Source: an uncultured Monoglobus sp. (GTDB lineage Bacteria > Bacillota > Clostridia > Monoglobales > Monoglobaceae). From it: a DNA stretch of 64,000 bases. Positions 5,856 to 60,679 of this stretch are shown in pieces. Below the pieces are notes generated by a model. That model had not been told where the DNA came from and did no database searches. It saw only the letters and a list, made by a program, of their open reading frames with translations. A program made the translations under genes and the position numbers. The DNA lies in contig CANRGH010000009.1 of assembly GCA_947630135.1 (NCBI GenBank), forward strand, positions 1,287 to 65,286, in the 5' to 3' direction. Position 1 is the first letter of the stretch; the number at the start of each line of letters is the position of its first letter.

Positions 5856-8800
5856 TTACAAGCTCACCTCTACATACTCCGCCAGAGGTTCTAATCTATC
5901 AAGATTGTCCCATACAAACACTTTTACATAAGCAGCGTTTTTCAGGTTTAATTTCAATATAATATTATTAGTTTCTCCGGGCAATGTCGTAATATCAGCT
6001 GACTTTATATCGGTAAGTACGTTATCACTCGAATAAGAACCGACAATCAGTTTAGCACCAAATCCTAAAATATTGCTTACGCTTACATTGACATTTTCAT
6101 CTAAGAAAGTTAAATCGTTTATAACATATACCATATTGTCGATGGGTTCAGTCGTAGGCTCTGCAGTCGGTTGGATTGTAGGCGTTTCAGTGGAAGAGGC
6201 ATTCGGACTTGTCGTGGGTTTCGCAGTCGGACTTGCCGCAGGCGTTGCAGTCGGACTTGTCGTGGGCGTTACAGTTGGACTCGCCGTAGGTGTCGCAATT
6301 GGACTTGCCGTGGGCGTCACAGTCGGACTTGCCGTAGGCGTCACAGTCGGACTTGTCGTGGGCATTACAGTTGGACTTGCCGTAGGTATCGCAGTTGGAC
6401 TCGCCGTAGGTGTCGCAATTGGACTTGCCGTGGGCGTCGCGGTCGGAGTTACCAAAGGCGTCACAGTCGGACTTGCTGTTGGTGTAGCCGTAGGAGCTAT
6501 TGTCGGTGTAGCAGTCGGACTTGCTGTGGGCTTTACTATGGGCGTAGCCGTTGGAGCCACTGACGGCGTAGCACTCGGACTTGATGTTGGAGCAGTACTT
6601 GGACTTACCATAGGCGCAGCGCTCGGACTTGTTGTAGGTAAAACCGATGGAAATGCCGAAGGCAAAGTAGAAGGTCCTGTTGTTGGCATTTCTGACGGCT
6701 GCATAGTCGGCTCGACATATGTTTCATCAGGAATCCACTTTGCATATAATACCACGCTTTGAGTTAATGGCTGATTTTCATATGGATAATGATATTCATC
6801 ATCAAAATACCACCCATCAAATATAAATCCATTTTTTTGTGGCATAATTTCACTATTTGCACTTTCGTTTTCTTTTATTGTTTGGCTTTGAACGCCACTG
6901 CCTCCCATAGTGTCAAAATCAACCGTGATATCGGTTCCGATAACCTTTAATTCGAAGGATTTTATCTTATGAGCATCGCCGTTTGATATTGTAGCAGTCA
7001 TAGATACATGCTGCGTTTCATCAGGTCTGCTTACAACGCCATCAGAATTTATAATATTTTCATTATTAGATTCCCATGTAATGATACTTCCATATAACCC
7101 GCCAGATTCCAATTCAATATTAGATCGCACATTATTGGCATTCTCGCCGGCTGAGTAACCAATTTTTGTATTATTGGTATCAAGATCAATTCGGCTTTGA
7201 TTATTATTATATTCCGCCAATGGCTCAAGAGTTTCACCACTATCATCTATGCCGATTATTGTATCTGATGTAATTGTATATATTATTTTTTTGTCATTTT
7301 TATTTTGGTAAGCTAAAGAATAAACATCGCCGTCATGATTTACGATGGTAACAATCGAAGGATGTGTTTGATTGACAGCAACTATTTTGATAGTTTTATC
7401 AAGAGTCGTAACACAAACGGAACTGTTTTCGTTATCGCGTGTTACTGTAAACTCATCATGATCGGACATAACTGCCATACTTGCGAGTGATATGAAATTT
7501 TGCTTATAACCATCGACTGGATTATAATAACCTAATGTACTATTATTTGAATCTTGTATTTCAAATGAGTCATCCTTATGAAATGTATACTGAATTTGAT
7601 AGTTATTTGATTTGTCATCCATTGTCAATTCTTCTGCCCAATATTCTACTACGGATTTACGCAATGAATTTATATCCATTAATTGAATCTGCGCCGTATT
7701 ATTTGAAAGCGACATCAACTCGAGTCTGTCCACGCCGTCCACTAAATTTCCATTTGTATTATACCAATTCTGCATAAGATTATTGGCAAAAGAGCTGCTT
7801 TCATATTCGCCGCTGTTTATTAACATGATCCAATCAATATAATCAACTATATCACCATTGCTATCAACTATTTTATTATAGATATTGGGAGCATTATGTT
7901 TAAAATAATAATTTATCATAAAATACTGTGCGGATTTTACGTTATTAATTGTTTCAAACACTTTTTGTCCCAATTTAAGAAGCTGAACTTCAAAGAGAGT
8001 ATTTGGAGCAAACTGTGCTATAAGACTAGTTGACTTAAAGTCCGAAATGTATGACTTTGTTGCGGAAGCGGCCTCCTGAATAACAGCGACCGATTTATAT
8101 TGATCGCCAAGGTCATTTATGAATGTTTTAAATACTTCACTTGCTACTGTTTTCGCTGACTTGCTTTTCAACTCCTCGTATACATCACTCGGTATACCAG
8201 ATAAAGAACCCAAGCCGCTATCCTTCCAAGCTGCTATTGATTCGGTCATTTGGCTATATAACTCATTTATTCCGCCTTCTTCCAAAATCATTTCAACATC
8301 TGGAATTAATTGTGACTTTGTAACTTTATACACATATTTCCCTGCTGTGTTAACAAGTTTTTGGGAGTAAATATTATAAATCACGGTTGCCATCGGATTC
8401 CGTTCAACACTGCTTATATATTCGGTATACTCCGCCGTTATCTTCTTAATCTTATCGGTTGTTTTATTAAGATCAATCACATCGACATTTTTAAGATATT
8501 CGTCTTCCCATAAGTTAACACTTTTAAGTGTGGAGTTGAGCATAATGATATCGCGCATAATATCATAAGTAGTATACTCATCGGCTGTCAATGCCATAGA
8601 ATTATCCATATATACGGTGGTAGGCATATATTTATTAATAATTTCCTGTGCTTCATAAGGTGTTATAGCAGCATCATAACCAAACTCTTTCGCCCACTCG
8701 TATAATTCCTCGGCGTATTCTGATTTTTTAGTTGATGGTGTGCCGGGGAGAGTTTTATCTTCGATTACATAAAACTTTTTGGGATATGACAATCTTACAT

Positions 8801-10766
8801 GATAAGGGTCATAAGTATCACCGGGATTATTTTCCTCGATGTCTGAATTATTATCGGGACCGTTGCTATTATAATGAATTGTTACATTATCTATAGAATC
8901 TTCATATGTCACCACAATCGAATCCCATTCTTCTTTACTGCCTTCATAATATATATCAGTAAGATTTGAGCATCCTCTGAAAGCGCTGGTATAAATTTCT
9001 CCTACGCCTCTATGTATAATCAAATATTTTAAATCATAACAAGCGCGAAATTCTAAATGTCCCAGACATTTTAGGCTTCCAGGAACTTCTATTGCTGTTA
9101 ATTCTTCACAATGATAAAACGGCCAAATAGACAAATCTGTTACAGTATTAGGAATTGTATATTTACCGGATTTACCTTCTGGGCAACAATATAATACCGT
9201 TTTAGTTTTATTGAATAATACACCATCATCTGATGAATAATATTGGTTATTTTCAGACACATTAATTGTCTCTAAAGAAGTGCAATTCTCAAACACATTA
9301 TATCCGCCATTTATATCATTTACGTTATCGGGAATCGTAATTTGTTGCAGTTTCCTACATTCATTAAACGTCCAAACGTCAATTATTTTTAAACTGTTGG
9401 GTAAAACAATATTTTCCAAAGATGAACAATGATCAAAAGCTTGTCGTTTAATTTCTTCAACTCCTTCGGGAATAATAATATTTTTTATGCTTGTGCAATT
9501 CATAAAAGCAAATTCATTGATTAATTTAATTTTACCAAAAAAGTTAACATTTTCCAACAATTCACACTTTTTGAACATATTGTCGGAAAGGACATCATTA
9601 TATAAATTAACTGTTTTTAAATTTGTACACTCCTCAAAAAGGCTGTATCCAACACTTGTAACGCTTTTTGGTATACTAGCAATTAATAAATTGCGACAAT
9701 ACGAAAAGGCACTATAATCTATATTGACAACATTTTCAGGAAGATCTATATATAATATTCCAGTACTACGAAATGCGTTATTTCCTATATTAATAAGATT
9801 TTGTGGGAAATTGACAATGGTTAATTTTTTGCACTCCTGAAATGCACAATCGCCAATATCTGTAACTCCATTAGGTATATCAATACTTTCTAATTTGTAG
9901 CAATATCTAAATAGACCCGCATTTATTTTAGTAATTTTGCTGGGCAACTTAATACTAATAATATTTTCGCATTTACGAAAGGCATAGCTGTCAATATTTA
10001 TAACACTTTCAGGAATTATTAATGATTTTAAACCTGTGCATTCATCAAATGCACCATATTCTATAGTCTCAACATTTCCGGATATATTAATATTTGTTAA
10101 TTTTGTATCATAGCTAAATGCATACTTTCCTATGACTTTTACACTTTCGGGAATATCAAATGTATCGGAAGTAGATTTTGGACATCCAATTATCTTTGTT
10201 AAATCTTTATTATATAACACATTATTTCGTACAGAAAAACACTCATTATTGGAATCAACTTTTATTTCAATCAAATTATTACAATTGTAAAAGAAATTGC
10301 CGTCTATCGTTTTCACATTTTCCGGAATATATAAATTTGTTAATTTATCACAGTCATAAAATGCACCTGTTTCTATATGCTCTAAGTTATCGGGCAAATC
10401 AACAGTTGTTAAGTTATCACAGTCGTCAAATGCATGACTGCCTATTTTTATTATTGTATCAGCAAAAACTACACTAGTAAGTCTATTACACCAGTTAAAT
10501 GCATTTTTCCCAATGCTCGTTACTCCATCTTCGATTACCACTTTAGAAATACGACTATGATACCAATTAGGCACACCATCTGTATCCGACATTTCGCCTG
10601 TACCACTGATTGTGAGAGTGCCAGTTTCATCTAATGTCCAAGTTAAATTGTCACCATCAATACCGCATGTACCACTTGATACGGCATTTGCATGTGTTGG
10701 CACAAAAATAATTGTGCCTATCAGTATCAACGACAATAACAAACTTATAATCCTTTTCATAAACAT
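5856..10766 (-). CDS. Large secreted BspA/TpLRR leucine-rich-repeat surface protein (LRR1). Order: signal peptide, N-cap, LRR array, unknown central region, atrophied Ig-like domain, InlB B-repeat, PT/S linker, C-terminal FxW domain
   Basis: Repeats of the form IPxxVxxIxxxAFxxCxxL; GSIITWESNN...VSRP; FDTMGGS...GFIFDGWY...LYAKW; RBS AGGAG. Confidence 0.88.
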   Translation of the reverse strand: MFMKRIISLLLSLILIGTIIFVPTHANAVSSGTCGIDGDNLTWTLDETGTLTISGTGEMSDTDGVPNWYHSRISKVVIEDGVTSIGKNAFNWCNRLTSVVFADTIIKIGSHAFDDCDNLTTVDLPDNLEHIETGAFYDCDKLTNLYIPENVKTIDGNFFYNCNNLIEIKVDSNNECFSVRNNVLYNKDLTKIIGCPKSTSDTFDIPESVKVIGKYAFSYDTKLTNINISGNVETIEYGAFDECTGLKSLIIPESVINIDSYAFRKCENIISIKLPSKITKINAGLFRYCYKLESIDIPNGVTDIGDCAFQECKKLTIVNFPQNLINIGNNAFRSTGILYIDLPENVVNIDYSAFSYCRNLLIASIPKSVTSVGYSLFEECTNLKTVNLYNDVLSDNMFKKCELLENVNFFGKIKLINEFAFMNCTSIKNIIIPEGVEEIKRQAFDHCSSLENIVLPNSLKIIDVWTFNECRKLQQITIPDNVNDINGGYNVFENCTSLETINVSENNQYYSSDDGVLFNKTKTVLYCCPEGKSGKYTIPNTVTDLSIWPFYHCEELTAIEVPGSLKCLGHLEFRACYDLKYLIIHRGVGEIYTSAFRGCSNLTDIYYEGSKEEWDSIVVTYEDSIDNVTIHYNSNGPDNNSDIEENNPGDTYDPYHVRLSYPKKFYVIEDKTLPGTPSTKKSEYAEELYEWAKEFGYDAAITPYEAQEIINKYMPTTVYMDNSMALTADEYTTYDIMRDIIMLNSTLKSVNLWEDEYLKNVDVIDLNKTTDKIKKITAEYTEYISSVERNPMATVIYNIYSQKLVNTAGKYVYKVTKSQLIPDVEMILEEGGINELYSQMTESIAAWKDSGLGSLSGIPSDVYEELKSKSAKTVASEVFKTFINDLGDQYKSVAVIQEAASATKSYISDFKSTSLIAQFAPNTLFEVQLLKLGQKVFETINNVKSAQYFMINYYFKHNAPNIYNKIVDSNGDIVDYIDWIMLINSGEYESSSFANNLMQNWYNTNGNLVDGVDRLELMSLSNNTAQIQLMDINSLRKSVVEYWAEELTMDDKSNNYQIQYTFHKDDSFEIQDSNNSTLGYYNPVDGYKQNFISLASMAVMSDHDEFTVTRDNENSSVCVTTLDKTIKIVAVNQTHPSIVTIVNHDGDVYSLAYQNKNDKKIIYTITSDTIIGIDDSGETLEPLAEYNNNQSRIDLDTNNTKIGYSAGENANNVRSNIELESGGLYGSIITWESNNENIINSDGVVSRPDETQHVSMTATISNGDAHKIKSFELKVIGTDITVDFDTMGGSGVQSQTIKENESANSEIMPQKNGFIFDGWYFDDEYHYPYENQPLTQSVVLYAKWIPDETYVEPTMQPSEMPTTGPSTLPSAFPSVLPTTSPSAAPMVSPSTAPTSSPSATPSVAPTATPIVKPTASPTATPTIAPTATPTASPTVTPLVTPTATPTASPIATPTASPTAIPTASPTVMPTTSPTVTPTASPTVTPTASPIATPTASPTVTPTTSPTATPAASPTAKPTTSPNASSTETPTIQPTAEPTTEPIDNMVYVINDLTFLDENVNVSVSNILGFGAKLIVGSYSSDNVLTDIKSADITTLPGETNNIILKLNLKNAAYVKVFVWDNLDRLEPLAEYVEVSL
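6202..6640 (-). repeat. About 18 degenerate 24-bp tandem repeats encoding (PTASPTAT)-like 8-aa units
   Basis: Recurring GTCGGACTTGCCGTGGGCGTCACA-like unit on the + strand. Confidence 0.9.
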
Positions 10767-10777
10767 ACAACTCCTAA

Positions 10778-10935
10778 ATTAAAAATGCGCGGTGTGAAAT
10801 CACAGCCGCGCAAATAATAAAAACGCAGCTTGATTTCTGTTGCGACACAGTTCATACCGAATCAAGTACGATAATCAACGCTTGCGCTTTTATCAAGCAC
10901 AAACTTGATTCGGTAAATCATTAACTATGCCGCAA
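10778..10935 (-). promoter_or_regulatory. Structured 5' leader ending in an intrinsic terminator (candidate attenuator or riboswitch)
   Basis: 13-bp stem at 10903-10915/10855-10867; terminator GCGCGG-C-TGTGA-TT-TCACA-CCGCGC-ATTTTT just before the RBS. Confidence 0.7.
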
Positions 10936-10939
10936 ATTA

Positions 10940-10968
10940 AATATATCATATCTCAATATAAATAGCAA
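10940..10968 (-). promoter_or_regulatory. SigA promoter of LRR1
   Basis: TTGCTA-17-TATATT with extended TG. Confidence 0.6.
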
Positions 10969-11121
10969 GTATTTTTTAAAAATAAAAAGTGTTCTTCAAG
11001 AAAAACATACGCGAAAAACACTTTAAGAAAAATTTAAAACAATATAGCCGAAACTATGCTTCTACTAACTCAACATATCACCATTTTATTAAACACGCCT
11101 CTACGCGGAGCGTTTTTTTTG

Positions 11122-12951
11122 TTACCCGGCCGCCATGTTGGCGCGGTAGTATCTGCCCTTTTGGGCCATCAGCTCGGCATGATTTCCGCTTTCGCAGATC
11201 TCGCCGTTATGTATCACGATTATGTTGTCCGCGTCGCGGATCGTTGACAGGCGGTGCGCGATCGTTATTCCCGTTCGGTTCTCCATAAGGTTGAGCAGCG
11301 CGCGCTGAATATCCTTCTCGGTTTTGGTGTCGACCGAGCCCGTGGCCTCGTCGAGTATCAGCACAGGGCTGCTGTGAAGCAGCGCGCGGGCTATCGCGAT
11401 GAGCTGCCGCTGGCCCTCGCTCAGGCTGTCGCGGCTGCCCGACACAACGGTATTATAGCCGTTCGGCAAACGGCGGATGAACCCGTCGGCCCTCGCCAGC
11501 TTTGCCGCATTTTTGACCTCTTCCTCCGTTGCCTCGGGGCGCGAATAACGTATGTTCTCAAGTATTGTGCCGGTAAACAGGCAGGTATCCTGAAGCACGA
11601 CCGAAAAGCATTTTTCAAGACTTTCGCGGCGGATGTCGCGGATGTTCACGCCGTCAAGCAAAATCTCGCCGCTGTCCGCGTCATAAAACCTCGTGAGCAG
11701 ATTTATGATCGTTGTCTTTCCGGAGCCAGTTTCGCCGACCAGCGCGACGTTCTCGCCCGGACGCACCTTGAACGAGATATTTTTCAGCACCGGCTTTCCG
11801 GGGATGTATGAAAAGCACACGTTTTTAAACTCGATCCCGCCCTTCATATCGTCCATGGAACGCGCGTCGCCGCGGTCGGGCGGCTCCTCCGCTTCGTCCA
11901 TTACCTCAAACACGCGCTCTGCTCCCGCGAGCGCCGACTGAATATTGTTGAAAAGTCCCGCAATCGAGTTAAGCGGCGTGGCGAACTGCTTTGAGTATGT
12001 CATAAAGCTGACCGCCGTGCCGATAAGCAGACCGTGTCTGGCGCAGAGAATTCCGCCGACTGTGGCGGTTATCGCAAACGTCAGGTTGTTTATAATATTC
12101 ATCAGCGGCATCATATATCCCGCCCATGTCTGCGCGCCCGTGCCGCTTGAGCGCAGATTTTCGTTTATTTCTGCGAACTCATTGAGCTTCGCGTCCTCCT
12201 TTGAGAACGTCTTGATCATTTTAAGGCCGTATATGCTCTCCTCGATAACGCCGCCCAGCTCGCCCAGAGCGCGCTGCTGCTTATAAAAATACCTTCTGCT
12301 CCGCGAAGCGATGACGTTGGTCAGCAAAAACACCATAGGCACGCACACAAGCACGGTCAGAGTCAGCGGAACGCTGAGCGAAAGCATTATCACGAACGAT
12401 CCGATAAGCGTCAGCGCCGCCGAAGCGAGCTGCGTCGCCGACTGCGCGATCGTGCCGCTTATGGTATCGGTGTCGTTGGTGAGGCGGCTCATTGTGTCGC
12501 CCCTCTGCGTGGTATCAAAAAACGACAGCGGCAGCTTTTGCAGCTTTGAGAACAGCTCAAAGCGCAGCGCCGAAACGAGCCGCTGAGATATTTTGAGTAT
12601 CGTCACCGAGCTTATCGTGTTTATTATCCAGTTGGTCACATAAAGGCCGACGATCACGGCTGTCATCGCGTAAAGCAGACCGAGATCGACCCGCATAAGC
12701 TCCGGAATAAACGCGTTGAACGCCTTTCCGACATAAAGCGGGATCAGCACCGAGATGCCCGACGAGATCAGCGTCAGCGCGACCGCGGCAAGCACCGGCT
12801 TTTTGAACCTCAGATACACCGCCATAAGGCGCAGAAGCGTTCCCTTTTGGTTCTTGGCGCGCTCGTTGTTTGAAAACCTCGCGACGCCGCCGACCTTCGG
12901 GCCGCCCATTCTGGGCATTTCCATTTTTTTGTTTCGGTTAATGTCCGCCAT
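11122..12951 (-). CDS. ABC exporter permease/ATPase, consensus-site subunit of a heterodimer
   Basis: Start reassigned to MADIN at 12951; GETGSGKTT, LSEGQRQL, LILDEAT, IAHRLST. Confidence 0.92.
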   Translation of the reverse strand: MADINRNKKMEMPRMGGPKVGGVARFSNNERAKNQKGTLLRLMAVYLRFKKPVLAAVALTLISSGISVLIPLYVGKAFNAFIPELMRVDLGLLYAMTAVIVGLYVTNWIINTISSVTILKISQRLVSALRFELFSKLQKLPLSFFDTTQRGDTMSRLTNDTDTISGTIAQSATQLASAALTLIGSFVIMLSLSVPLTLTVLVCVPMVFLLTNVIASRSRRYFYKQQRALGELGGVIEESIYGLKMIKTFSKEDAKLNEFAEINENLRSSGTGAQTWAGYMMPLMNIINNLTFAITATVGGILCARHGLLIGTAVSFMTYSKQFATPLNSIAGLFNNIQSALAGAERVFEVMDEAEEPPDRGDARSMDDMKGGIEFKNVCFSYIPGKPVLKNISFKVRPGENVALVGETGSGKTTIINLLTRFYDADSGEILLDGVNIRDIRRESLEKCFSVVLQDTCLFTGTILENIRYSRPEATEEEVKNAAKLARADGFIRRLPNGYNTVVSGSRDSLSEGQRQLIAIARALLHSSPVLILDEATGSVDTKTEKDIQRALLNLMENRTGITIAHRLSTIRDADNIIVIHNGEICESGNHAELMAQKGRYYRANMAAG

Positions 12952-16442: not shown

Positions 16443-16519
16443 GGACCTTTAGCTCAGTTGGTTAGAGCAACCGGCTCATAACCGGTCGGTCCGGGGTTCG
16501 AGTCCCTGAAGGTCCACCA
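16443..16519 (+). tRNA. tRNA-Ile2 (CAT anticodon, lysidine type)
   Basis: Cloverleaf with anticodon loop CT-CAT-AA and encoded CCA; the GGACCTTTA acceptor stem matches the Bacillus Ile2 type as I recall it; elongator Met not fully excluded. Confidence 0.85.
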
Positions 16520-16688: not shown

Positions 16689-16772
16689 TGGTGCGGGCGA
16701 CAGGACTTGAACCTGCACGGGAAGCCCACCAGATCCTAAGTCTGGCGCGTCTGCCAGTTCCGCCACGCCCGC
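16689..16772 (-). tRNA. tRNA-Leu (TAG)
   Basis: GCGGGCGTGGCGGAACTGGCAGACGCG-CCAGA-CT-TAG-GA-TCTGG, long variable arm, CCA end. Confidence 0.95.
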
Positions 16773-20846: not shown

Positions 20847-20935
20847 TGGCGGACGGGGTGGGATTCGAACCCACGTGCCGTTTCCGACAAACTGATTTCG
20901 AGTCAGCCCCGTTATGACCACTTCGATACCCGTCC
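20847..20935 (-). tRNA. tRNA-Ser (CGA)
   Basis: GCTGA-CT-CGA-AA-TCAGT anticodon arm, long variable arm, GGTTCGAATCC, CCA. Confidence 0.95.
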
Positions 20936-21933: not shown

Positions 21934-22440
21934 TTAAATAATTTGTTGATCAAGCTCCGAAAGAACGGGAAATCCTTCCCTATATTCCTTGACCATGTCC
22001 GGATTTTTCACGGCCTCTTCCTCTATGACCTTTCCAAGGCCGCTCTCCACAAGCTCCCTCACCGTTTCAAGCGGAAGCTTGTTGATCTCGGGGCATGTGG
22101 GGGTCAGCGCGATCACCGTCTTATCGCCTTTATTCATAATTCTAAGGGGCCAGATTTTGCAGTCAAGCGGCTTTTCGCCGTCGCTCAGCATACAGCCCTT
22201 GCGGCCGTCCAAAAAGAAACAGGCCGCCTCCTCTTCCGGATCGTCGGTTTTATATTCGCCGTCAATATCGATCGTCAGCATATCGCCAACCTGTCTGAAT
22301 TTCGCGTTTTTATATTTTTCGGACAGCGCCGCCGCGGTCTCTTTGGTGAAAAGCGGCGTTTCCCAGCGGCTCTGCCGCCTGAAAACACAGCAAAATTTAC
22401 ACTCGGCGCATTTGCTTTTTGAAAGGATCGAAGAAAGCAC
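21934..22440 (-). CDS. YkgJ-like cysteine-cluster (CxxCxxCC) protein
   Basis: CAECKFCC, CFFL...GCML...KPLDCKIWP; GTG start. Confidence 0.75.
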   Translation of the reverse strand: MLSSILSKSKCAECKFCCVFRRQSRWETPLFTKETAAALSEKYKNAKFRQVGDMLTIDIDGEYKTDDPEEEAACFFLDGRKGCMLSDGEKPLDCKIWPLRIMNKGDKTVIALTPTCPEINKLPLETVRELVESGLGKVIEEEAVKNPDMVKEYREGFPVLSELDQQII

Positions 22441-22556
22441 AAAATCACCTCAAAAGTTAATCATCAAATTAAGCAACCGCTGATTAAGACGGTATTTAAT
22501 CAGCGGTTGCTTAAGCAGAGCCGCCGCAAGGCGGCTCCGCTTAAAATGCAATTTAC

Positions 22557-39716: not shown

Positions 39717-39745
39717 TTTACAAATTAATCCTAATATGTTATAAT
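39717..39745 (+). promoter_or_regulatory. SigA promoter upstream of the LRR2 leader
   Basis: TTTACA-17-TATAAT with extended TG. Confidence 0.75.
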
Positions 39746-39751
39746 AATTGC

Positions 39752-39964
39752 GCTACATGTCTTAAATATTGTGTTTGTGCCATTATTGTGTATATGGTTT
39801 TATTTTCATATTTTCGGAATCCGTTTGCGAAAATGCAGACTCGAACAATTCCGAAAATGTGTAACATAGACACAATAGGTTTTAAGATGTGTAGCAGCAT
39901 AAAGTTCGAGCTGTGTTTTTATATTTTTGCGCAGCCGCGATCTCTTGGCTGCGCTTTTTATTTT
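39752..39964 (+). promoter_or_regulatory. Structured 5' leader ending in an intrinsic terminator (candidate attenuator, riboswitch or sRNA)
   Basis: Nested stems 39752-39766/39881-39895, 39767-39774/39870-39877 and 39810-39820/39848-39858; terminator GCGCAGCC...GGCTGCGC-TTTTTATTTT. Confidence 0.7.
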
Positions 39965-40040
39965 CTGTCAAAAACATGGACGCGGCAAGAACGTTCGAAA
40001 AAATATATTAATAATTATAATATACATGGAGGCAAGACAA

Positions 40041-42848
40041 ATGAATAAAAGGCTCAAAAGTATCGTATTGGCGCTTTTTATACTCTGCACGGCACTGCCC
40101 GACGGAATAAAAGCGTATGCCGCGGAGCAATACGAAACTGCGGAAACATCCCTTGTTGATGAAGCCGCGCTGTCGGACGGCTCGGCGGAGACCGCCGAAG
40201 TGGTCGACGGTATCACCTTGGAATACGACTCAACAAGCACCGAGTACACCAAGCTGGTACATGTGCGCTATAACGCTTCAAAGTTCACAAAAGGAATAAG
40301 CCGCTTTAAGATCATACTGAGGATTTTGGGCGGAAGCGTGGCAAGCGTCGACTATAAGACCGAATTTTCGTCAAGGTTCAGAATAAACGGCTCTTATTCT
40401 GGCGGCATTTACACAATAAGCGGCTCGTCAAGCTCGGCGGAGGTTCCCGGCGACGGCTGCTTGTTCACCGCCGTTCTGAACCTTTCAGACGCGCTGACCG
40501 CGCCGATCGCGATAAGCATCACAGGAGACACATATCTGGGCGATCCGACAACCGCTTATTATCTCAGCAACGGCGGTTTGAGCGACGCGTCAACCGAGAT
40601 ACCGATAATGAGCGGCCAAGCGGGCTGGACGACCGACACATCCGGCACAATAGGAAACGTGGTTTGGGCGTACAGCAAAAACACTCTGACTCTAAGCGGC
40701 GAGGGCAACATGCCCGACTTCACGGCGGGAACCGCTCCGTGGTACAAAAACGGAAAAAACCTCATCAAGCATATCGTGTTCACCGATAACAGCAATATAG
40801 TGTCCGTCGGTGCTTACGCGTTTTACGGCTTGAGCGCGCTTGAGGACGTCACATTCGTTGATAAGATCAACACGGTGGGCCGGAACTCTTTTGAAGGCTG
40901 CTCGTCTCTCAAAGAACTGAACATTCCCACCAACATGCACGCCGGAATTGGCGAGGAGGCATTCAAAGACTGCGTCTCTATAAATGAGATATTTATACCG
41001 AACGGCATGCTCGCCGTCAGCAAAGGCGCGTTTAAGGGCTGCACCGGCCTCAACAAGATAACAATGCCGTTTATCGGCTCGCAGGTCGGAACCTCTAACA
41101 ACACCAACACGTTCGTCTATCTTTTTGACGGTTATGTTCCGATGAGCCTCAAGACGGTCGTTATAACAAATGAGACGGATATTCCCGCGGAGGCCTTCAA
41201 AGGCTGCTCGGGCATAACATCGATCACGATAAATCCCGAGATAAAAACTGTGGGCGTGTCGGCCTTTGACGGCTGCTCGTCGCTCGGCACATTTAATATT
41301 CCCGACGGCGTCTCCGTTATAAACGACAACACATTCAGAAATTGCTCATCTATCCGCTCGATAACCGTGCCCGACACGGTGCGGGCTATCGGAGAAGGCG
41401 CGTTTGACGGCTGCGCTTCGCTCGGCTCGATACATATTCCCGAAAGCGTTACCGAAATAAAGAATTACACATTCCGCGGCTGCGCGTCGCTGACAGAGAT
41501 CAAAATCCCCTCGGGCGTCACCTCGATCGGCGAGGAAACGCTCAAAGGCTGCTCAAGGTTAACGAGCATTGTCATACCTTTCGTCGGCGCGTCATACAGA
41601 CCGGGTCTGAGCGAGATCACGCATGCCGGAGTGTTCGGCTATCTGTTCGGAAAGTCAACGTCGCAGACCGCGACTAGGCAGGGAAACGACAGTTATGAGA
41701 TCCCGACGTCCGTCACAAAGGTTGAGATCACAAACATCGACTCGAGAGCCTACATACCTCCCGGCGCATTCATCAACTGCTCGAATATCGCGGACATCAT
41801 AATCGACGGCGGCGCCACGGTATGCGCCGAGGCCTTCAAAAACTGCCGCAACCTGAAAAATCTGTACATTCCGAAATCTATTGACGAGATCCAGCGCGAT
41901 ATACTTTACGGATGCACGAGCCTCGTGACTCTGACCGTGCCCTTTGTCGGAAACAGCAGAACAGACTTAAATCATGAGACCTCGGTTCTCGGATATTTCT
42001 TCGGTTTTGGCGACAATCGCGAGAACGAGACCGACATAATCCAGTATTACAACGAAAACGACTTCCATTACTATTTTGTGCCGGAGTCTCTGAAGAACGT
42101 TTCGGTGCTCAATAAAACAAACATACCTTACGGAACGTTTATGAACTGCCGCTACCTTGAAAGAGTGTCAATAGTCAGCGGCGCGGTGATAAACGCCCAC
42201 GCGTTTTACAACTGCGTGTCTTTGAAGCAGGTATCGCTGCCTTCAAACCTGACCGAGATCGGATATGAGACATTCGCGGAATGCGCGGCGCTTGAGACGA
42301 TCAATCTCCCCGCGGTAAGGAACCTTAAGTTAGGCGACTACGCGTTCTACAACTGCACGGGTCTTCGGAACATAACTATCCCGCCCAACGTAAAATCGAT
42401 CTCCGAGAGCGCGTTCATCGGCTCGGCGATCGGGGCGGCCGACACCGCCGAAGCTGCTGCAAGCGACGTGCTGACCATTTATTGCGAGAGCGGCTCATAC
42501 GCCGAGGAATACGCCAAAGCAAACGGAATAAAATATGAGATCGCACAAAAGGGCGAACTGAACATTATAAAAACAATGACAAGCGTGAGCCGCCTGTCTG
42601 ACGGCGCGTATCTGTTCGATGTGACCGACTCAAATCTGATGAGCGGAACGGTGTTCGCAGCGCTCTACGACAAAAACGGCGCGCTGATAAGCGCGCAATG
42701 CGCTCCCGCAGAGGCTGCAGCGGACGCGAGATTTATTTTCAGTGCCGAAGATTATCAGAACGCGGCCGAAGCCAAAGCCTTCATCTGGAGCGGAACCGAC
42801 ACTATAACGCCGAAGACCACCGAAGCGGAGATCATCGAGCTTAGATAA
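40041..42848 (+). CDS. Secreted BspA-like LRR surface protein (LRR2) with a cohesin-like N-terminal module and a C-terminal FxW domain
   Basis: Start at 40041 after GGAGG; signal peptide; LRRs with PF(I/V)G insert repeats. Confidence 0.87.
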   Translation: MNKRLKSIVLALFILCTALPDGIKAYAAEQYETAETSLVDEAALSDGSAETAEVVDGITLEYDSTSTEYTKLVHVRYNASKFTKGISRFKIILRILGGSVASVDYKTEFSSRFRINGSYSGGIYTISGSSSSAEVPGDGCLFTAVLNLSDALTAPIAISITGDTYLGDPTTAYYLSNGGLSDASTEIPIMSGQAGWTTDTSGTIGNVVWAYSKNTLTLSGEGNMPDFTAGTAPWYKNGKNLIKHIVFTDNSNIVSVGAYAFYGLSALEDVTFVDKINTVGRNSFEGCSSLKELNIPTNMHAGIGEEAFKDCVSINEIFIPNGMLAVSKGAFKGCTGLNKITMPFIGSQVGTSNNTNTFVYLFDGYVPMSLKTVVITNETDIPAEAFKGCSGITSITINPEIKTVGVSAFDGCSSLGTFNIPDGVSVINDNTFRNCSSIRSITVPDTVRAIGEGAFDGCASLGSIHIPESVTEIKNYTFRGCASLTEIKIPSGVTSIGEETLKGCSRLTSIVIPFVGASYRPGLSEITHAGVFGYLFGKSTSQTATRQGNDSYEIPTSVTKVEITNIDSRAYIPPGAFINCSNIADIIIDGGATVCAEAFKNCRNLKNLYIPKSIDEIQRDILYGCTSLVTLTVPFVGNSRTDLNHETSVLGYFFGFGDNRENETDIIQYYNENDFHYYFVPESLKNVSVLNKTNIPYGTFMNCRYLERVSIVSGAVINAHAFYNCVSLKQVSLPSNLTEIGYETFAECAALETINLPAVRNLKLGDYAFYNCTGLRNITIPPNVKSISESAFIGSAIGAADTAEAAASDVLTIYCESGSYAEEYAKANGIKYEIAQKGELNIIKTMTSVSRLSDGAYLFDVTDSNLMSGTVFAALYDKNGALISAQCAPAEAAADARFIFSAEDYQNAAEAKAFIWSGTDTITPKTTEAEIIELR

Positions 42849-42883
42849 AAACCGAATGGCAAACGCCGGAAAGGGATGAAAAT

Positions 42884-45800
42884 ATGAAAAAAATTAAAAA
42901 CAAAGCATTATGTTTGATTATGGCAATGATTATGACGGCGCTTACGATCCCCGCCGCCGCTATCGCCGCGGAAGATAATGGCCCACAGCAGGAAAATTCC
43001 GTATATGACTCACCCGCATTAACCGACGAGCACTCTGCTGACGAATACGCCGTAGACGAGCACGCCGTAGACGAATACGCCGAGGCGGCCGCAACCAACG
43101 GCGTTTGCGGCGAAAACTTAACATGGTCATACAGCGGCTATACCTTAACCATTAGCGGAACCGGCCCGATGTATGATTTTCAAGATAGTGCTCCTCCATG
43201 GAGCAAATTCAGCGCCCTGTTCCCGGGTGATATAAAAAAAGTTATCATTAGCGACGGTGTGACTTCGATCGGCCATAATGCGTTTGATAACTGCAGTTTG
43301 CTGACAAGCATAACAATACCAAACAGCGTGACTTCGATCGGGAGTCGTGCGTTTCTTGCTTGTGATTCGCTGACAAGCATAACAATACCCGACGGCATGA
43401 CTTCGATCGGTGATGGTGCGTTTTGGGCCTGCAGTTCGCTGAAAAGCATAAACATACCCGACAGCGTAACTTTGATCGGCGAACTGGCGTTTACATATGC
43501 AGCTTTATCCAGAATAAATGTTGCGGATAATAACCCAAATTACACATCAAAAGACGGTGTTCTTTTTACCAAAGATATGTCAACGCTCGTATGTTATCCG
43601 CCGAAAAAAATGACATCCGATTCGTACAACATACCAACCGGCGTGACTTCGATCGGCGATCATGCGTTTATGAAGTGCGATTCGCTGACAAGCATAACAA
43701 TACCCGACAGCATGACTTCGATCGGTTATGAGGCGTTTTATAGGTGCAGTTCGCTGGCAAACATAAATATACCAAGCAGCGTTACTTCAATTAGTAATAG
43801 TGCGTTTTATTGCTGCTATTCGCTGACAAATATAACTATACCAAGCAGCGTGACTTCAATTGGTAATAGTGCATTTCAAAGCTGTATATCATTGAAAAGC
43901 GTTACCATATTTAATTCGGAAGTCTCTTTATTAGGTAACGCTGTATTTAATGATTGTCCTTCGGATATTGTGATCAGAGGCGTCAAAGGCTCAACAGTCG
44001 AGGAATACACATATGCAAACAATATTACATTTAATGCTTTGGGATATATTTCTCTTGAGCTCATAGACAATGACGACAGCGATAGCCTGACGGATTTCCG
44101 CATAGCGGCCGCGCTTAACGGTTTCAGCGCTCCGGACAGCGTGAATATCGCGCTCAGTCTGCCGAAGGGAGCGCAGGTAAATGCGAGTACGCCGACAGCC
44201 GGCGCGGAAGGCCTGCTCACCGTCGAGGACGACGGCAGCGTTTCATATCTTCTCACCTTGCCGGAAACTCCGGTCTCCGACGGCGTTATCGCCGAGTTTG
44301 ATATTAAGCTTGAGAGCATGCTTGTCAAACTGTTTGAAGCGGAGCTGCTTGACGGAACCTATGTTATGTCCGGCGAGGAGACATTAAGCATTTCGGACGG
44401 CTCGCTTATGCCCGCCTCACTGACTCTGCCCGTCGGTCTTGAGAGCGGCACGGGCGGCACAACCGGCGGCTTTAGCTGGGACTTTACCGGCGACACGCTG
44501 TATTTAAACGGAACCGGCGAGCTTCCGGATTATGAGGAAGGCGGCGCGCCTTGGTTCTACGGCGCGAGCCAGATAAAGCACATTGTTTTCATGAACAACG
44601 CGGTGACGGCAATAGGAAAAAACGCGTTTTTCGGCTTGCATAACGTGATCGACGCGAATATGCCCTCCGGGCTGCTGGCCGTCGGCGAAGGCGCGTTCAA
44701 CGGCTGCAAGAGCCTTCAGAGCGTTGACTTTACCGAAAACATGAGCGAGGGCATAGGCGCGAGAGCGTTTAAGAACTGCTCATCATTAACCGAGATATAC
44801 GTTCCCGAACGCGTCAGCGTTATAGGCGAGGGCGCGTTTGAGGGCTGCGCGGGACTCACCGCCATCACTCTTCCATTTGTCGGATCACAAGTGGGAAGCC
44901 TTAACAACACCGACACCTTTAATTACATATTCGGCGGCGCCGCGCCCGAAAATCTCACCACTGTCACGATAACCAACGAGGTGAGCCTGCCGCAAAGCGC
45001 TTTTGAAGGCTGCGGTCATATTAAAGAGATCAATCTGCTGACCGATATGCAGGACATAGGCGAGGCGGCTTTCAAAGACTGTGAATCACTCGAAAAATTC
45101 GATATTGACAACGGAATAACCACGATCAGAGATTACACCTTCCAAAACTGCGCCTCGATCACTTCGATAACCGTGCCCGACACAGTGCAGAATATAGGCG
45201 AGTCGGCGTTTGACGGCTGCAAGAGCCTTCAATCGGTGCATATCCCCGACGGAATAACAATAATCAGAAACAGGACGTTCAAAGACTGCGCCTCGATCAC
45301 GTCGATCGAAATACCCGAAAGCGTTACCGCCATAGGCGAGGAAACACTCAAGGGCTGCATAAGACTTCGGACGATGGTGATCCCGTTTGTCGGCTCGTCA
45401 TATAACCCCGGCATGAGCGGCATCAATTACGAAGGAGTTTTCGGATACTTTTTCGGCAAGTCAACGTCGGAGACCGCGACAAAGCAAGGCAGCGACAGCT
45501 ATGAGATACCGCCGGCCGTGACAAAGGTCGAGGTGCTGAACACGGATCCGTCGTCATACATACCGCCGGGCGCGTTCATCAACTGCTCGGGCATAGCGGA
45601 CATTCTGATAGACGGCGGAGCGAAAGTATACGCGGAAGCCTTCAAAAACTGCCGCAACCTTAAAAATCTGTATATACCCAAGTCGATAGACGAGATAAAA
45701 TCGGACATACTCTACGGATGCACAAGTCTTGAGACGCTGACCGTGCCGTTTACCGGAAGCGACAGAAACGATCTGAACACCGAGACATCGGTTCTGGGCT

Positions 45801-46732
45801 ACTTCTTCGGCTACGGGCCCGAGACAAACGTAACCGACGTTAAGCAGCAGTACAGCAGCAACAGCAATGACACGCACTTCTACTACATACCGCGCTCGCT
45901 GAAGAATGTGTCTGTGCTCAACAAGACAAATATATCCTACGGAACGTTTATGAACTGCCGCTATCTTGAAAGCATATCAATAGTAAGAGGCGCGGTGATA
46001 GACGAAAAGGCGTTTAACAACTGCTCGGCGCTTGTGAACGTGTCGCTGCCTTCGGATCTGACAGAGATCGGCTATGAGGCCTTCGCGGAGTGCGCGAACC
46101 TTAAAACGATAAACCTGCCGTTCACGAACACAAGCCTTGAAATAGGGGACTACGCGTTTTACAACTGCCTTAACCTTGAAGAGATAAGAGTTCCGTCAAA
46201 TGTCACCCGGATCGCGGACAAGGCGTTTATCGGCTCAAATATATTCCGCACGAGAGCCGCGGACGCGGCCGAGGCAGCGGCTGACGCGCCGATATTCTAT
46301 TGCCAGTCGGGCTCATACGCGGAGGAATACGCGATCCAAAACAACATCAATTACGAGACGATAAGCGCAGACGAGCTGAACGTCAAAACAACGTCGACGA
46401 CTGTGAGCGCGCTGTCGGACGGATCGTGCCTGTTTGACATAATAGACACGAGCGGACTCGGAAGAGGCGTGTTATTCGCGGCGCTTTACGACAGCGAGGA
46501 TAATTTGCTGAAGACCGAAACGCGGACTGTAAAGACCAATGACGCGGTTGAAACAAGAATAGAGATGCCGAAGTCGGAATGGTACGACAGCGGAGCCGCA
46601 TACGCAAAGATATTCCTTTGGGACAGCGTTGACGAGATGACACCGCTTTCAACCACGGTCGAGCAGATAGAGATGAGCCAAGTCAGACAAGAATACGAGT
46701 CCATGCCCGTCCCCGAAACTCCCGACATTTGA
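42884..46732 (+). CDS. Secreted BspA-like LRR surface protein (LRR3): an extra N-terminal LRR block plus a paralogue of LRR2
   Basis: Signal peptide; GVCGENLTW cap; IPDSVTSIGxxAFxxC repeats; second cap GGFSWDFTGDTLYLNGTGELPDY. Confidence 0.88.
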   Translation: MKKIKNKALCLIMAMIMTALTIPAAAIAAEDNGPQQENSVYDSPALTDEHSADEYAVDEHAVDEYAEAAATNGVCGENLTWSYSGYTLTISGTGPMYDFQDSAPPWSKFSALFPGDIKKVIISDGVTSIGHNAFDNCSLLTSITIPNSVTSIGSRAFLACDSLTSITIPDGMTSIGDGAFWACSSLKSINIPDSVTLIGELAFTYAALSRINVADNNPNYTSKDGVLFTKDMSTLVCYPPKKMTSDSYNIPTGVTSIGDHAFMKCDSLTSITIPDSMTSIGYEAFYRCSSLANINIPSSVTSISNSAFYCCYSLTNITIPSSVTSIGNSAFQSCISLKSVTIFNSEVSLLGNAVFNDCPSDIVIRGVKGSTVEEYTYANNITFNALGYISLELIDNDDSDSLTDFRIAAALNGFSAPDSVNIALSLPKGAQVNASTPTAGAEGLLTVEDDGSVSYLLTLPETPVSDGVIAEFDIKLESMLVKLFEAELLDGTYVMSGEETLSISDGSLMPASLTLPVGLESGTGGTTGGFSWDFTGDTLYLNGTGELPDYEEGGAPWFYGASQIKHIVFMNNAVTAIGKNAFFGLHNVIDANMPSGLLAVGEGAFNGCKSLQSVDFTENMSEGIGARAFKNCSSLTEIYVPERVSVIGEGAFEGCAGLTAITLPFVGSQVGSLNNTDTFNYIFGGAAPENLTTVTITNEVSLPQSAFEGCGHIKEINLLTDMQDIGEAAFKDCESLEKFDIDNGITTIRDYTFQNCASITSITVPDTVQNIGESAFDGCKSLQSVHIPDGITIIRNRTFKDCASITSIEIPESVTAIGEETLKGCIRLRTMVIPFVGSSYNPGMSGINYEGVFGYFFGKSTSETATKQGSDSYEIPPAVTKVEVLNTDPSSYIPPGAFINCSGIADILIDGGAKVYAEAFKNCRNLKNLYIPKSIDEIKSDILYGCTSLETLTVPFTGSDRNDLNTETSVLGYFFGYGPETNVTDVKQQYSSNSNDTHFYYIPRSLKNVSVLNKTNISYGTFMNCRYLESISIVRGAVIDEKAFNNCSALVNVSLPSDLTEIGYEAFAECANLKTINLPFTNTSLEIGDYAFYNCLNLEEIRVPSNVTRIADKAFIGSNIFRTRAADAAEAAADAPIFYCQSGSYAEEYAIQNNINYETISADELNVKTTSTTVSALSDGSCLFDIIDTSGLGRGVLFAALYDSEDNLLKTETRTVKTNDAVETRIEMPKSEWYDSGAAYAKIFLWDSVDEMTPLSTTVEQIEMSQVRQEYESMPVPETPDI
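43025..43084 (+). repeat. Four 15-bp tandem repeats (DE[HY][SA][AVE])
   Basis: GACGAGCACTCTGCT GACGAATACGCCGTA GACGAGCACGCCGTA GACGAATACGCCGAG. Confidence 0.9.
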
Positions 46733-46817: not shown

Positions 46818-46973
46818 CTCTTCTTCCTCTTTCGGGAAATTTTCTTTTTTTAAAATACGGTAAATTTTCTTTTTTAAAATAACTGTTGAATTTATCTGTA
46901 TTGTTATGTTATAATATTATTTATGCACATAAACGAAGCAAATAAAAATTTCAGACACAACGGAGATGATATT

Positions 46974-48944: not shown

Positions 48945-48955
48945 GAGAACAGATC

Positions 48956-58852: not shown

Positions 58853-59124
58853 AGTCATGTGCTTGCGTTCGAAACAGCTCTACAAGCGTTACTCACACAG
58901 TTAGCTCGGATTTAGCGCCCTCACGGCACATCGGAGTAACTGCTTATCGCTGCTGCGTTCCCGCCCTGACGAGGTTCACAGGTTCCGATTGCGTAAGACC
59001 AAACCGTCAACACCACTTATGCGAGGCAGACCAAACAAAGATGTTCCTCAGACGCAAGTTTTCATCCCCTCTGTAGCGGATTGAGGGTTACAAGGCACCG
59101 CTAACGCCCCGATTTAACATGACT
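58853..59124 (-). ncRNA. ffs: Signal recognition particle RNA, large (Alu-containing, Bacillus-type)
   Basis: About 270 nt with paired ends (AAGTCATGT/ACATGACTT); helix 8 GTCAGG-GCG-GGAA-CGC-AGCAGC; 5' Alu-like region; directly upstream of dnaX; own TTGACC-17-TAAAAT promoter at 59130-59158. Confidence 0.93.
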
Positions 59125-60617: not shown

Positions 60618-60664
60618 ATTATAATACAAAAGCGCGGAATTGTCAAATAATTCCGCGCTTTATA
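60618..60664 (-). promoter_or_regulatory. trkH terminator hairpin containing the -35 of a perfect SigA promoter for the MATE gene
   Basis: AAAGCGCGGAAT/ATTCCGCGCTTT stem; TTGACA (60641-60646)-17-TATAAT (60618-60623) on the minus strand. Confidence 0.75.
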
Positions 60665-60679
60665 AGCTCCGCTTTTATA

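Follow-up and report, generated by a model that had tools for sequence, protein, structure and literature searches.

In Clostridia, riboswitches of the cyclic di-GMP (c-di-GMP) I and II classes precede surface-protein, pilus and phage genes. The cell-wall protein gene cwpV of Clostridioides difficile is separated from its promoter by invertible DNA that makes a leader terminator when it lies in the OFF orientation. In phage lambda, transcription from PR' passes the terminator tR' of the short 6S RNA through antitermination by Q, and the leaders of aprE and of the S-layer genes of lactobacilli are 5'-terminal stem-loops that stabilise the messenger RNA. We describe here a leader of ~155 nucleotides (nt) on the minus strand of contig CANRGH010000009.1 (assembly GCA_947630135.1) of an uncultured Monoglobus sp., within a stretch of 64,000 nt that we analysed as a whole (the window); its intrinsic terminator ends 6 nt ahead of the ribosome binding site (RBS) of LRR1, a leucine-rich repeat (LRR) gene. 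We think it probable (roughly 0.6) that this leader is a copy of a modular promoter-leader cassette that controls the next gene by putative conditional intrinsic termination, and the family to which it belongs probably switches surface and accessory genes on and off in response to a signal. As in c-di-GMP-type riboswitch platforms, a covarying 5' domain is followed, directly ahead of the RBS, by a mutually exclusive antiterminator and intrinsic terminator; as with those riboswitches there are several copies per genome, tandems, and copies ahead of envelope, surface and accessory genes and occasionally in phages. The locus resembles cwpV in that a promoter is followed by a leader of ~150-200 nt with inverted repeats and a terminator, and then by a surface-protein gene. 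It resembles T-box, PyrR, LicT/SacY ribonucleic antiterminator (RAT) and ANTAR-target leaders in that structure chooses between terminator and antiterminator, a balance that a trans factor could tip.

The order of parts in the cassette is promoter, three-part hairpin, short linker, GCUGYG-U5, and a GC-rich terminator just ahead of the RBS. An earlier reading of the bare sequence (the original prediction) had proposed an attenuator-like leader here, built on four segments (seg1 to seg4), and every promoter, segment and RBS element that it listed is present on the minus strand. MFE below denotes the minimum free energy fold.

10940-10968, minus strand: sigma-70 promoter of the LRR1 leader, with -35 TTGCTA (10968-10963), 17-nt spacer and TG-extended -10 TATATT (10945-10940)
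10923-10935, minus strand: P1 5' strand, UUGCGGCAUAGUU (MFE; P1 covariation in 51 members)
10933-10929, minus strand: seg1, GCGGC
10903-10915, minus strand: P2 5' strand, UACCGAAUCAAGU (DNA TACCGAATCAAGT), free in sequence but constant in complementarity to its partner
10882-10902, minus strand: P3 hairpin, UUGUGCUU, loop GAUAA, AAGCGCAA (MFE, covariation)
10892-10879, minus strand: A-rich P3 3' strand, UAAAAGCGCAAGCG, complementary to GCUGCGUUUUU
10868-10881, minus strand: J3/2, a 14-nt bulge on the 3' side, GCGUUGAUUAUCGU, semi-conserved in the family (..UCAU..)
10855-10867, minus strand: P2 3' strand, ACUUGAUUCGGUA (DNA ACTTGATTCGGTA; MFE, covariation)
10840-10852, minus strand: P1 3' strand, AACUGUGUCGCAA (MFE, covariation)
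10837-10850, minus strand: alternative mini-hairpin CUGU-GUCGCA-ACAG, which excludes P1
10837-10824, minus strand: antiterminator 5' strand, GAAAUCAAGCUGCG, including GCUGCG of seg2 (10829-10824)
10830-10823, minus strand: seg2, AGCTGCGT
10823-10819, minus strand: U5 tract after the antiterminator 5' strand
10811-10804, minus strand: seg3, GCGCGGCT
10810-10796, minus strand: antiterminator 3' strand, which is the terminator 5' arm plus loop
10792-10787, minus strand: seg4, CCGCGC, followed by the U-tract (10785-10781)
10781-10811, minus strand: intrinsic terminator, GCGCGG (10811-10806), loop CUGUGAUUUCACA, CCGCGC (10792-10787), U-tract (10785-10781)
5856-10774, minus strand: LRR1 RBS GGAG (10774-10771) and gene, with ATG at 10766 or, more likely, 10760

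The predicted folding energy of the LRR1 leader is -65.1 kcal/mol, against -38.0 +/- 3.2 kcal/mol for dinucleotide shuffles (z -8.6; none of 200 shuffles equals it), and the MFE structure is a single long hairpin consisting of P1, an asymmetric internal loop, P2, P3 and the 14-nt 3' bulge. P1 is a 13-base-pair (bp) closing helix, absent from the original prediction, in which UUGCGGCAUAGUU (10935-10923) pairs with AACUGUGUCGCAA (10852-10840), and P2 is a perfect 13-bp stem of TACCGAATCAAGT (10915-10903) with ACTTGATTCGGTA (10867-10855); the stems TTGTGCTT/AAGCGCAA and CTGT/ACAG were also located. Downstream of the hairpin, a 14-bp antiterminator pairs GAAAUCAAGCUGCG with CGCGGCUGUGAUUUC and takes up the terminator 5' arm and loop. 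Two helices of the original prediction have to be given up. The pairing of seg1 with seg2 (GCGGC:GCUGC) is not conserved, GCGGC being part of the P1 5' strand, where it pairs with GUCGC inside P1 and where the family consensus is GCGAC; and TGATTT/AAATCA, thought to close the domain, is not a consensus helix, since P1 closes it and AAATCA (10836-10831) is part of the antiterminator, pairing with TGATTT in the terminator loop.

Several other features considered in the leader were rejected. The sequence TTGATA-17-TATCGT (10896-10868) makes a weak internal promoter that is not conserved; a leader peptide was not accepted, as the LRR1 hairpin holds a single ATG-initiated open reading frame (ORF), which lacks an RBS and, by inspection, is not conserved; a target elsewhere in the window for the variable P2 came down to a single site with two mismatches, at chance level; and a possible terminator T1 further upstream, in which the P1 tail CGCARC would pair with GCUGYG ahead of U5, is 82% paired without covariation. 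One pair of T1 fails in 39 of 51 members, which confines it to a subgroup.

We next describe the family, whose loci, collected by pattern, model or neighbour-gene sampling, carry L-numbers (L002, L008 and so on), and for which two covariance models, R1 and R2, were built in this analysis. GTDB species genomes searched with the pattern AGCTGNGTTTTTAN{2,7}TTGCGCNGC gave four true copies, two in one uncultured Clostridia metagenome-assembled genome (MAG) and one each in two uncultured Monoglobus MAGs, all from rabbit gut, together with five chance matches. A pattern combining the P1 3' strand with GCUGNG-U5 gave one true copy among IMG/VR viral contigs and at least 80 loci in metagenome contigs, with the complete architecture in ~58 among the matches listed. 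The pattern scans combined yielded 46 distinct sequences; R1 and R2 recovered all of them and added others that had escaped the patterns (L063 983-1149, and the tandem upstream units in L002 and L008). A P3-based pattern run on viral contigs returned 46 chance matches and no new member. In total there are more than 50 distinct copies, from gut and rumen metagenomes (the sample sources include human gut, rumen, mouse, rabbit and deer), from Monoglobus and other Clostridia MAGs, and from one phage. The LRR1 leader scores 93.1 bits with R2 (E 2e-20), and both it and a second leader in the window, ahead of the gene LRR2, match R2 over its full length with promoter, P1-P2-P3, GCUGYG-U5 and terminator in that order. 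As judged by these matches, the leader family is large and widespread in gut Clostridia, and it is present twice in the window.

Sampling through homologues of one downstream ATP-binding cassette (ABC) ATPase gene is independent of the RNA patterns. It produced one clear member (L096, 78 bits, whose P1 3' strand CUGUGCCGC lies outside the search pattern), and one degenerate member (L094, 30 bits), whereas the motif is missing from three further loci; the cassette is thus both gained and lost. In L037, L071, L074, L073, L019, L026, L094 and L096 the promoter, P1 and the platform are intact and P3 or the inner domain is deleted or decayed; the sensing part may have been lost in some lineages.

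Covariation was computed on an alignment of 51 mutually related sequences fitted to the model. Its 41 consensus pairs are paired in 92.2% of cells (78.9% in shuffles), 30 of the 41 show changes on both sides, and the covariation score of 0.432 compares with 0.187 in shuffled alignments, none of 500 reaching the observed value, and with at most 0.077 in slid controls. Double-changed pairs number 8 of 14 in P1 (94.5% of cells paired), 7 of 7 in P2, 5 of 10 in P3 and 10 of 10 in the terminator. The original prediction had made further homologues and covariation its test, and the more than 50 copies and these double changes in P1, P2, P3 and the terminator come out in its favour. G-U pairs are frequent in the consensus helices, which gives the RNA the same sense as the downstream gene. 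P1 is conserved in sequence, and P2 is free in sequence yet always paired; the conserved unpaired segments are J1/2 AAUA, the P3 A-run and UCAU in J3/2. The leader thus carries a conserved structured domain, P1-P2-P3, backed by covariation, as is expected of a riboswitch aptamer. A DNA switch of the cwpV type was rejected, since P3 and the 3' bulge have the same orientation in 51 of 51 aligned copies from many samples, under a search pattern that left the orientation of the inner segment free. Unlike those at cwpV, the repeats here are nested stems with RNA-type covariation that includes G-U pairs, and no recombinase is consistently nearby.

The promoter is tied to the structure. The -10 hexamer ends exactly 6 nt ahead of the first P1 pair in ~45 of 49 distinct upstream regions, and it is TG-extended in 43 of the 49. 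From this fixed spacing the transcript should begin inside P1, and in LRR1 the predicted start (~10935-10933) coincides with the first base pairs of P1. A paired 5' end is the defining property of Firmicutes 5' stabilisers, and as in aprE and the S-layer leaders the predicted start is base-paired and precedes genes for highly expressed secreted or surface proteins. This leader might then be unregulated, with the 5' hairpin protecting the mRNA from decay that depends on the 5' end and the terminator and antiterminator setting a fixed, leaky read-through. The exact coincidence of start and helix in ~45 of 49 copies agrees with such a role, as do the many abundant surface or secreted proteins encoded downstream, a hairpin that seems too stable to depend on a ligand, and the persistence of copies with decayed inner domains. 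A stabiliser, however, has no need of a terminator, of a conserved antiterminator or of downstream copies of P3 and P1 strands, and the aprE and S-layer stabilisers have neither a terminator/antiterminator pair nor such copies; nor would it account for the unpaired conservation of J1/2 AAUA, the P3 A-run and J3/2 UCAU, or for a platform that keeps 91-97% identity between species of the LRR1 group. We regard it as an improbable explanation.

Conditional termination, the reading that we prefer, depends on the 3' part of the leader. An intrinsic terminator lies between the promoter and a co-oriented ORF, and a conserved alternative helix sequesters the terminator 5' arm; both are hallmarks of an attenuation leader. 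This helix is the antiterminator that had been proposed from seg2 and seg3 as exclusive with the terminator, and its pairing potential is conserved: its core (GCUGYG with the terminator 5' arm) is paired in 97% of cells among the 51 sequences, the pairing is possible in every copy, 49 members have energies of -7 to -18 kcal/mol for it, and the hairpin is present in 8 of 8 predicted folds of transcripts truncated before the terminator 3' arm. Its extensions into the linker and terminator loop differ by subgroup with complementarity kept (CCGA/UCGG, GAAAUCA/UGAUUUC, UUAAAGCAAG/CUUGUUUUAA, AUCGGGG/CCUCGAU), and a linker-shuffle test of the extension is weakly significant (mean z -1.1; p <=0.05 in 18% of sequences). 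The antiterminator is already in the MFE structure of the full-length LRR1 leader, which suggests that LRR1 is ON by default. The full-length MFE folds of most other members contain the terminator, and because it wins at equilibrium in most members but LRR1, kinetics would decide the outcome there. In LRR1 only 6 nt separate the U-tract from GGAG, which leaves no room for another LRR1 promoter after the terminator.

GCUGYGUUUUU is a copy of the P3 5' strand and is complementary to the P3 3' strand, AAAAAYRYA.GC. Of 53 members, 47 have their best duplex between this segment and the inner domain on the P3 3' strand (-8 to -12.8 kcal/mol), and in LRR1 the duplex of seg2 plus U5 with that strand has an energy of -12.7 kcal/mol (z -3.8). 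The helix is 98.9% paired, with one pair GC in 37 sequences and AU in 6, and the duplex is also found in members that were found without that search pattern (L063 983-1149, L096 and LRR2). In L002 4859-5029 it lands on the P3 3' strand but is broken and partial; L008 7403-7571 is one of the six exceptions, its best duplex lying on UGUGCUUUAUAGGCA, on the P3 5' side. Conservation of the P3 A-run extends to members in which its P3 partner is something other than a U-run. We consider the pairing of GCUGYG-U5 with the P3 3' strand a candidate decoy. The mini-hairpin involves a second downstream copy, since ACAG, the tail that follows P1, repeats a portion of the P1 5' strand. Its CUGU/ACAG closing pair is CG in 28 sequences, UA in 21 and AU in 1 (98% paired), and it is the alifold consensus once the 5' half is removed. 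Three positions, one in each strand of P1 and one in the tail that follows it (alignment columns 12, 207 and 222), covary jointly, which implies a mini-hairpin that is possible only with the very stable P1 open.

These pairings could be combined as follows. A housekeeping-type promoter would start the transcript at the first base pair of the long hairpin. The antiterminator would form first, co-transcriptionally, and give read-through unless GCUGYG-U5 had been captured before, the built-in captor being the P3 3' strand AAAAAYRYA.GC, which can pair with the whole of GCUGYGUUUUU. In such a three-strand exchange, a closed P3 would lead to the antiterminator and turn the gene ON; an open P3, with its 3' strand holding GCUGYG-U5, would lead to the terminator and turn it OFF. 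The hairpin domain would act as a sensor that sets the balance by binding a factor or a small ligand. The genes under control are diverse, envelope-related and accessory, and for this reason we are inclined to favour a global signal as the input (for instance a nucleotide second messenger or an RNA-binding protein) over a metabolite. In its most specific form the proposal would be a new riboswitch class, with a rod-like aptamer locked to the promoter and an A5:U5 long-range decoy, which answers a global signal (e.g. a nucleotide second messenger) and coordinates surface proteins, lipoproteins, ABC exporters and phage or accessory genes; we hold this version only tentatively, as rather unlikely.

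A number of observations weigh against conditional termination by this mechanism. The changes in the antiterminator are one-sided only (G-C to G-U), which amounts to conserved pairing potential and not to strict covariation, and the decoy is backed by few independent double changes in mutually related sequences. The geometry is doubtful, as the linker is only 6-10 nt and P1 plus P2 span ~25 bp (~45 bp in LRR2), and at ~-45 kcal/mol the hairpin is very stable for P3 or P1 to open. The P1 3' strand and GCUGNG-U5 were part of the search patterns, so their invariance is partly imposed by ascertainment. L037, L094 and L096 have decayed sensor domains and intact platforms. Finally, the 34 downstream proteins lack the shared pathway or function, pointing to a ligand, that would be expected downstream of a riboswitch, and no regulator family recurs near the copies in a Pfam survey of 101 neighbouring ORFs.

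Some copies form tandem units, each with its own promoter and terminator: L002 4859-5029 and 5077-5232, L008 7403-7571 and 7203-7355, and L063 983-1149 and 348-490. The upstream units of L002 and L008 are of a different subtype (GCAGCAAUCGG...) and are followed directly by the next unit's promoter. This arrangement bears on whether the units are stand-alone genes for trans-acting small RNAs (sRNAs) of ~150 nt, for which a position upstream of a gene would be incidental or allow secondary read-through. A good promoter locked to the 5' end and a strong terminator in every unit are what an sRNA gene should have; the complete unit that precedes a second promoter and not a gene in L002 and L008, the two units of L063, the 81 nt between the LRR2 terminator and its ATG, and the terminator in most full-length MFE folds can all be read in this way. 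Placement, however, is not independent of genes: the ORF is always co-oriented and the RBS mostly lies 5-30 nt past the U-tract, so that those genes are expressible only by read-through. The antiterminator kept in every copy would be purposeless in a free sRNA, and no conserved single-stranded seed region is evident. We judge an sRNA function alone to be of low probability; sRNA and cis roles are not mutually exclusive.

One copy, L010 9070-11104 (IMGVR_UViG_3300029305_003539), is in a phage, in a moron-like position between an endolysin gene and a small lipoprotein gene; its endolysin region is similar to Faecalimonas and Blautia phages. The layout recalls lambda PR'-6S-tR' in that a strong promoter makes a short terminated RNA upstream of genes, with a terminator that must be passed, and in that one copy adjoins a phage lysis gene. 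The leader could accordingly be a load site for processive antitermination (lambda Q, N/nut or LoaP-like), where a protein loads onto RNA polymerase at or near the promoter-proximal hairpin and renders it resistant to the terminator, with the RNA alternatives secondary. A constitutive-looking promoter followed by a short terminated transcript and then genes, the fixed distance from promoter to hairpin, the sequence conservation of P1, which suggests recognition by a protein, the phage copy directly after the endolysin gene, and the resolvase, integrase, HicB and WYL genes near some copies all fit this idea. No candidate antiterminator gene, though, recurs among the 101 neighbouring ORFs, the motif occurs in only ~3 phage-labelled records (the IMG/VR copy and two faecal contigs), and the conserved antiterminator hairpin with its subgroup-specific extensions argues for a structural switch. 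Unlike the lambda 6S/Q system, moreover, the leader has a conserved covarying structure and a built-in antiterminator, lacks a linked Q-like gene and is mostly chromosomal. We think a load site very unlikely. These three alternatives (sRNA, 5' stabiliser and load site) overlap partly with conditional termination.

The original prediction had also taken the leader for an undescribed switch, and no Rfam 15 family matched it. Rfam 15 (4227 models) was run in gathering and E-value modes. On the whole window it found only signal recognition particle (SRP) RNA and three tRNAs; on 18 homologous loci one tRNA and nothing else; in E-value mode on 10600-11150 its best match, to a miRNA model, had E 0.013 and 23 bits where the gathering score is 90, and on the canonical members L014 and L021 there was none. 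The c-di-GMP-I (GEMM-I), c-di-GMP-II and ydaO (c-di-AMP) models gave no match in the LRR1 region at E up to 10 or in L014 and L021 at E up to 1, and the T-box model gave no match to the LRR1 leader. The P3 loop GGUA is not kept as a T-box UGGN and varies as GUUA, GAUA, AGUA and GGCA. Searches of the literature by sequence strings and keywords, including Narunsky 2024, found no description of the leader; the unnamed human-microbiome candidates of Fremin and Bhatt 2021 (PMC8040213) could include the family, which is absent from the first 200 of the 408 supplement files. The family is absent from Rfam 15 and from the literature searched; its architecture is new and its class of mechanism, conditional termination, is known. 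It departs from the c-di-GMP riboswitches in that its sensor is one long rod-like hairpin without a multi-helix junction, its P1 does not overlap the antiterminator, its promoter lies at a fixed distance with the 5' end paired, and each tandem unit has its own promoter. T-box and PyrR leaders differ from the LRR1 leader, to which no Rfam model matches, and ANTAR and RAT targets differ in their hexaloop-hairpin pair and in a RAT that overlaps the terminator, both of which the leader lacks; unlike the genes behind T-box, PyrR, LicT and ANTAR leaders, those behind this family do not form one pathway.

A co-oriented ORF follows every copy, with the RBS usually 5-30 nt past the U-tract. Five of the 34 downstream proteins are BspA LRR proteins (LRR_5) and five are ABC_tran ATPases, four of these with DrrA1-3_C and usually followed by an ABC-2 permease; the others include many lipoproteins and secreted proteins, zinc-ribbon and SHOCT membrane proteins, an AbrB/MazE-like protein and an AMP-binding enzyme. 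With only 5 of 34 downstream proteins of the BspA LRR type, the family is not LRR-specific and is more general than the original prediction of a switch for LRR surface proteins had it. The few resolvase, integrase, HicB and WYL genes near some copies suggest accessory regions. If the switch is real, it is a regulatory module common to many uncultured and poorly studied gut Clostridia (Monoglobus relatives and taxa of the human, rumen, rabbit and deer gut), sitting ahead of surface-shaping genes for BspA-type adhesin-like LRR proteins, lipoproteins and ABC exporters, and it would offer a handle on surface remodelling in the host. The riboswitch and riboregulator candidates gain an orphan leader whose design rules are unusual: its promoter is locked to a paired 5' end, two hairpin strands are copied downstream, the inner stem is freely replaceable, and tandem units have their own promoters. 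Metagenomes can be annotated for such leaders with the covariance model as it stands. In the window, the prediction is that read-through of the leader terminator is the only route to expression of LRR1 and probably also of LRR2 and LRR3.

The second leader in the window has the following parts.

39717-39745, plus strand: LRR2 leader promoter, TTTACA, 17-nt spacer, TG-extended TATAAT, near-consensus
39749-39959, plus strand: LRR2 leader, a divergent family member (R2 38.6 bits)
39752-39765 with 39882-39895, plus strand: LRR2 P1, 14 bp, GCUACAUGUCUUAA with UUAAGAUGUGUAGC
39828-39839, plus strand: P3-like decoy CGAAAAUGCAGA (duplex -8.8 kcal/mol)
39910-39915 and 39916-39920, plus strand: LRR2 seg2 GCUGUG and U5
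39929-39954 plus U5, plus strand: LRR2 terminator
40041-46732, plus strand: two BspA-type LRR genes 3' of the second leader, LRR2 (40041-42848) and LRR3 (42884-46732)

The homology of the two leaders that had been proposed is confirmed by R2, which was built on 51 other sequences with LRR2 left out and matches it over its full length (38.6 bits, E 2.6e-7). The shared signature AGCTGYGTTTTTA occurs in the window only ahead of the two genes (10818-10830 on the minus strand and 39909-39921 on the plus strand), and nhmmer likewise finds only the LRR1 and LRR2 leader copies there; possible further copies at 60626-60743 and 22300-22520 were rejected as ordinary terminators. The LRR2 leader has a folding z of -7.2 against shuffles and an inner stalk much longer than that of LRR1. 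The true LRR2 ATG is at 40041, which gives a spacer of 81 nt from terminator to ATG. Within this spacer (39960-40040) there is a TATAAT at ~40014-40019 with a poor -35, not flagged by the promoter scan, and a second LRR2 promoter may lie downstream of the terminator.

Comparison of copies points to mosaic evolution. Between L002 and L008, two copies in one MAG, identity is 96% over the upstream 70 nt, 95% in the 5' part of P1, 62% in the inner P2-P3-J3/2 and 92% from the P1 3' strand through the terminator; between species of the LRR1-type group the 3' part is 91-97% identical and the upstream region 69-81%. The inner stem has been exchanged wholesale, with the flanks kept or homogenised; this may be due to recombination between copies or to diversifying selection acting on the stem. 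In the window, ~10985-11070 on the minus strand has weak similarity to the platform and terminator of the L002 and L008 upstream tandem units; it looks like a decayed remnant of a tandem unit, and the ABC transporter gene that ends at 11122 may now use it as its terminator.

The LRR1 ORF encodes 1636 amino acids with LRR_5 (E 3e-118) and Flg_new, aBig_2 and PT repeats (Pfam-type domains), and its predicted product is a secreted BspA-type LRR protein. It has two in-frame ATGs (MFMKR...), of which ATG 10760 is better spaced from GGAG and agrees with the start of homologues (MKRIL... in L002). LRR1 and its leader lie in a low-GC island (window 7000-11000, 0.30-0.36, compared with ~0.50-0.59 across most other parts of the window), which suggests that gene and promoter-leader cassette were acquired together by horizontal transfer. 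The housekeeping context of the window includes the bacterial large SRP RNA (58855-59122), uvrB-uvrA (46923-51802) and the three tRNAs, at 16443-16516, 16692-16772 and 20850-20935.

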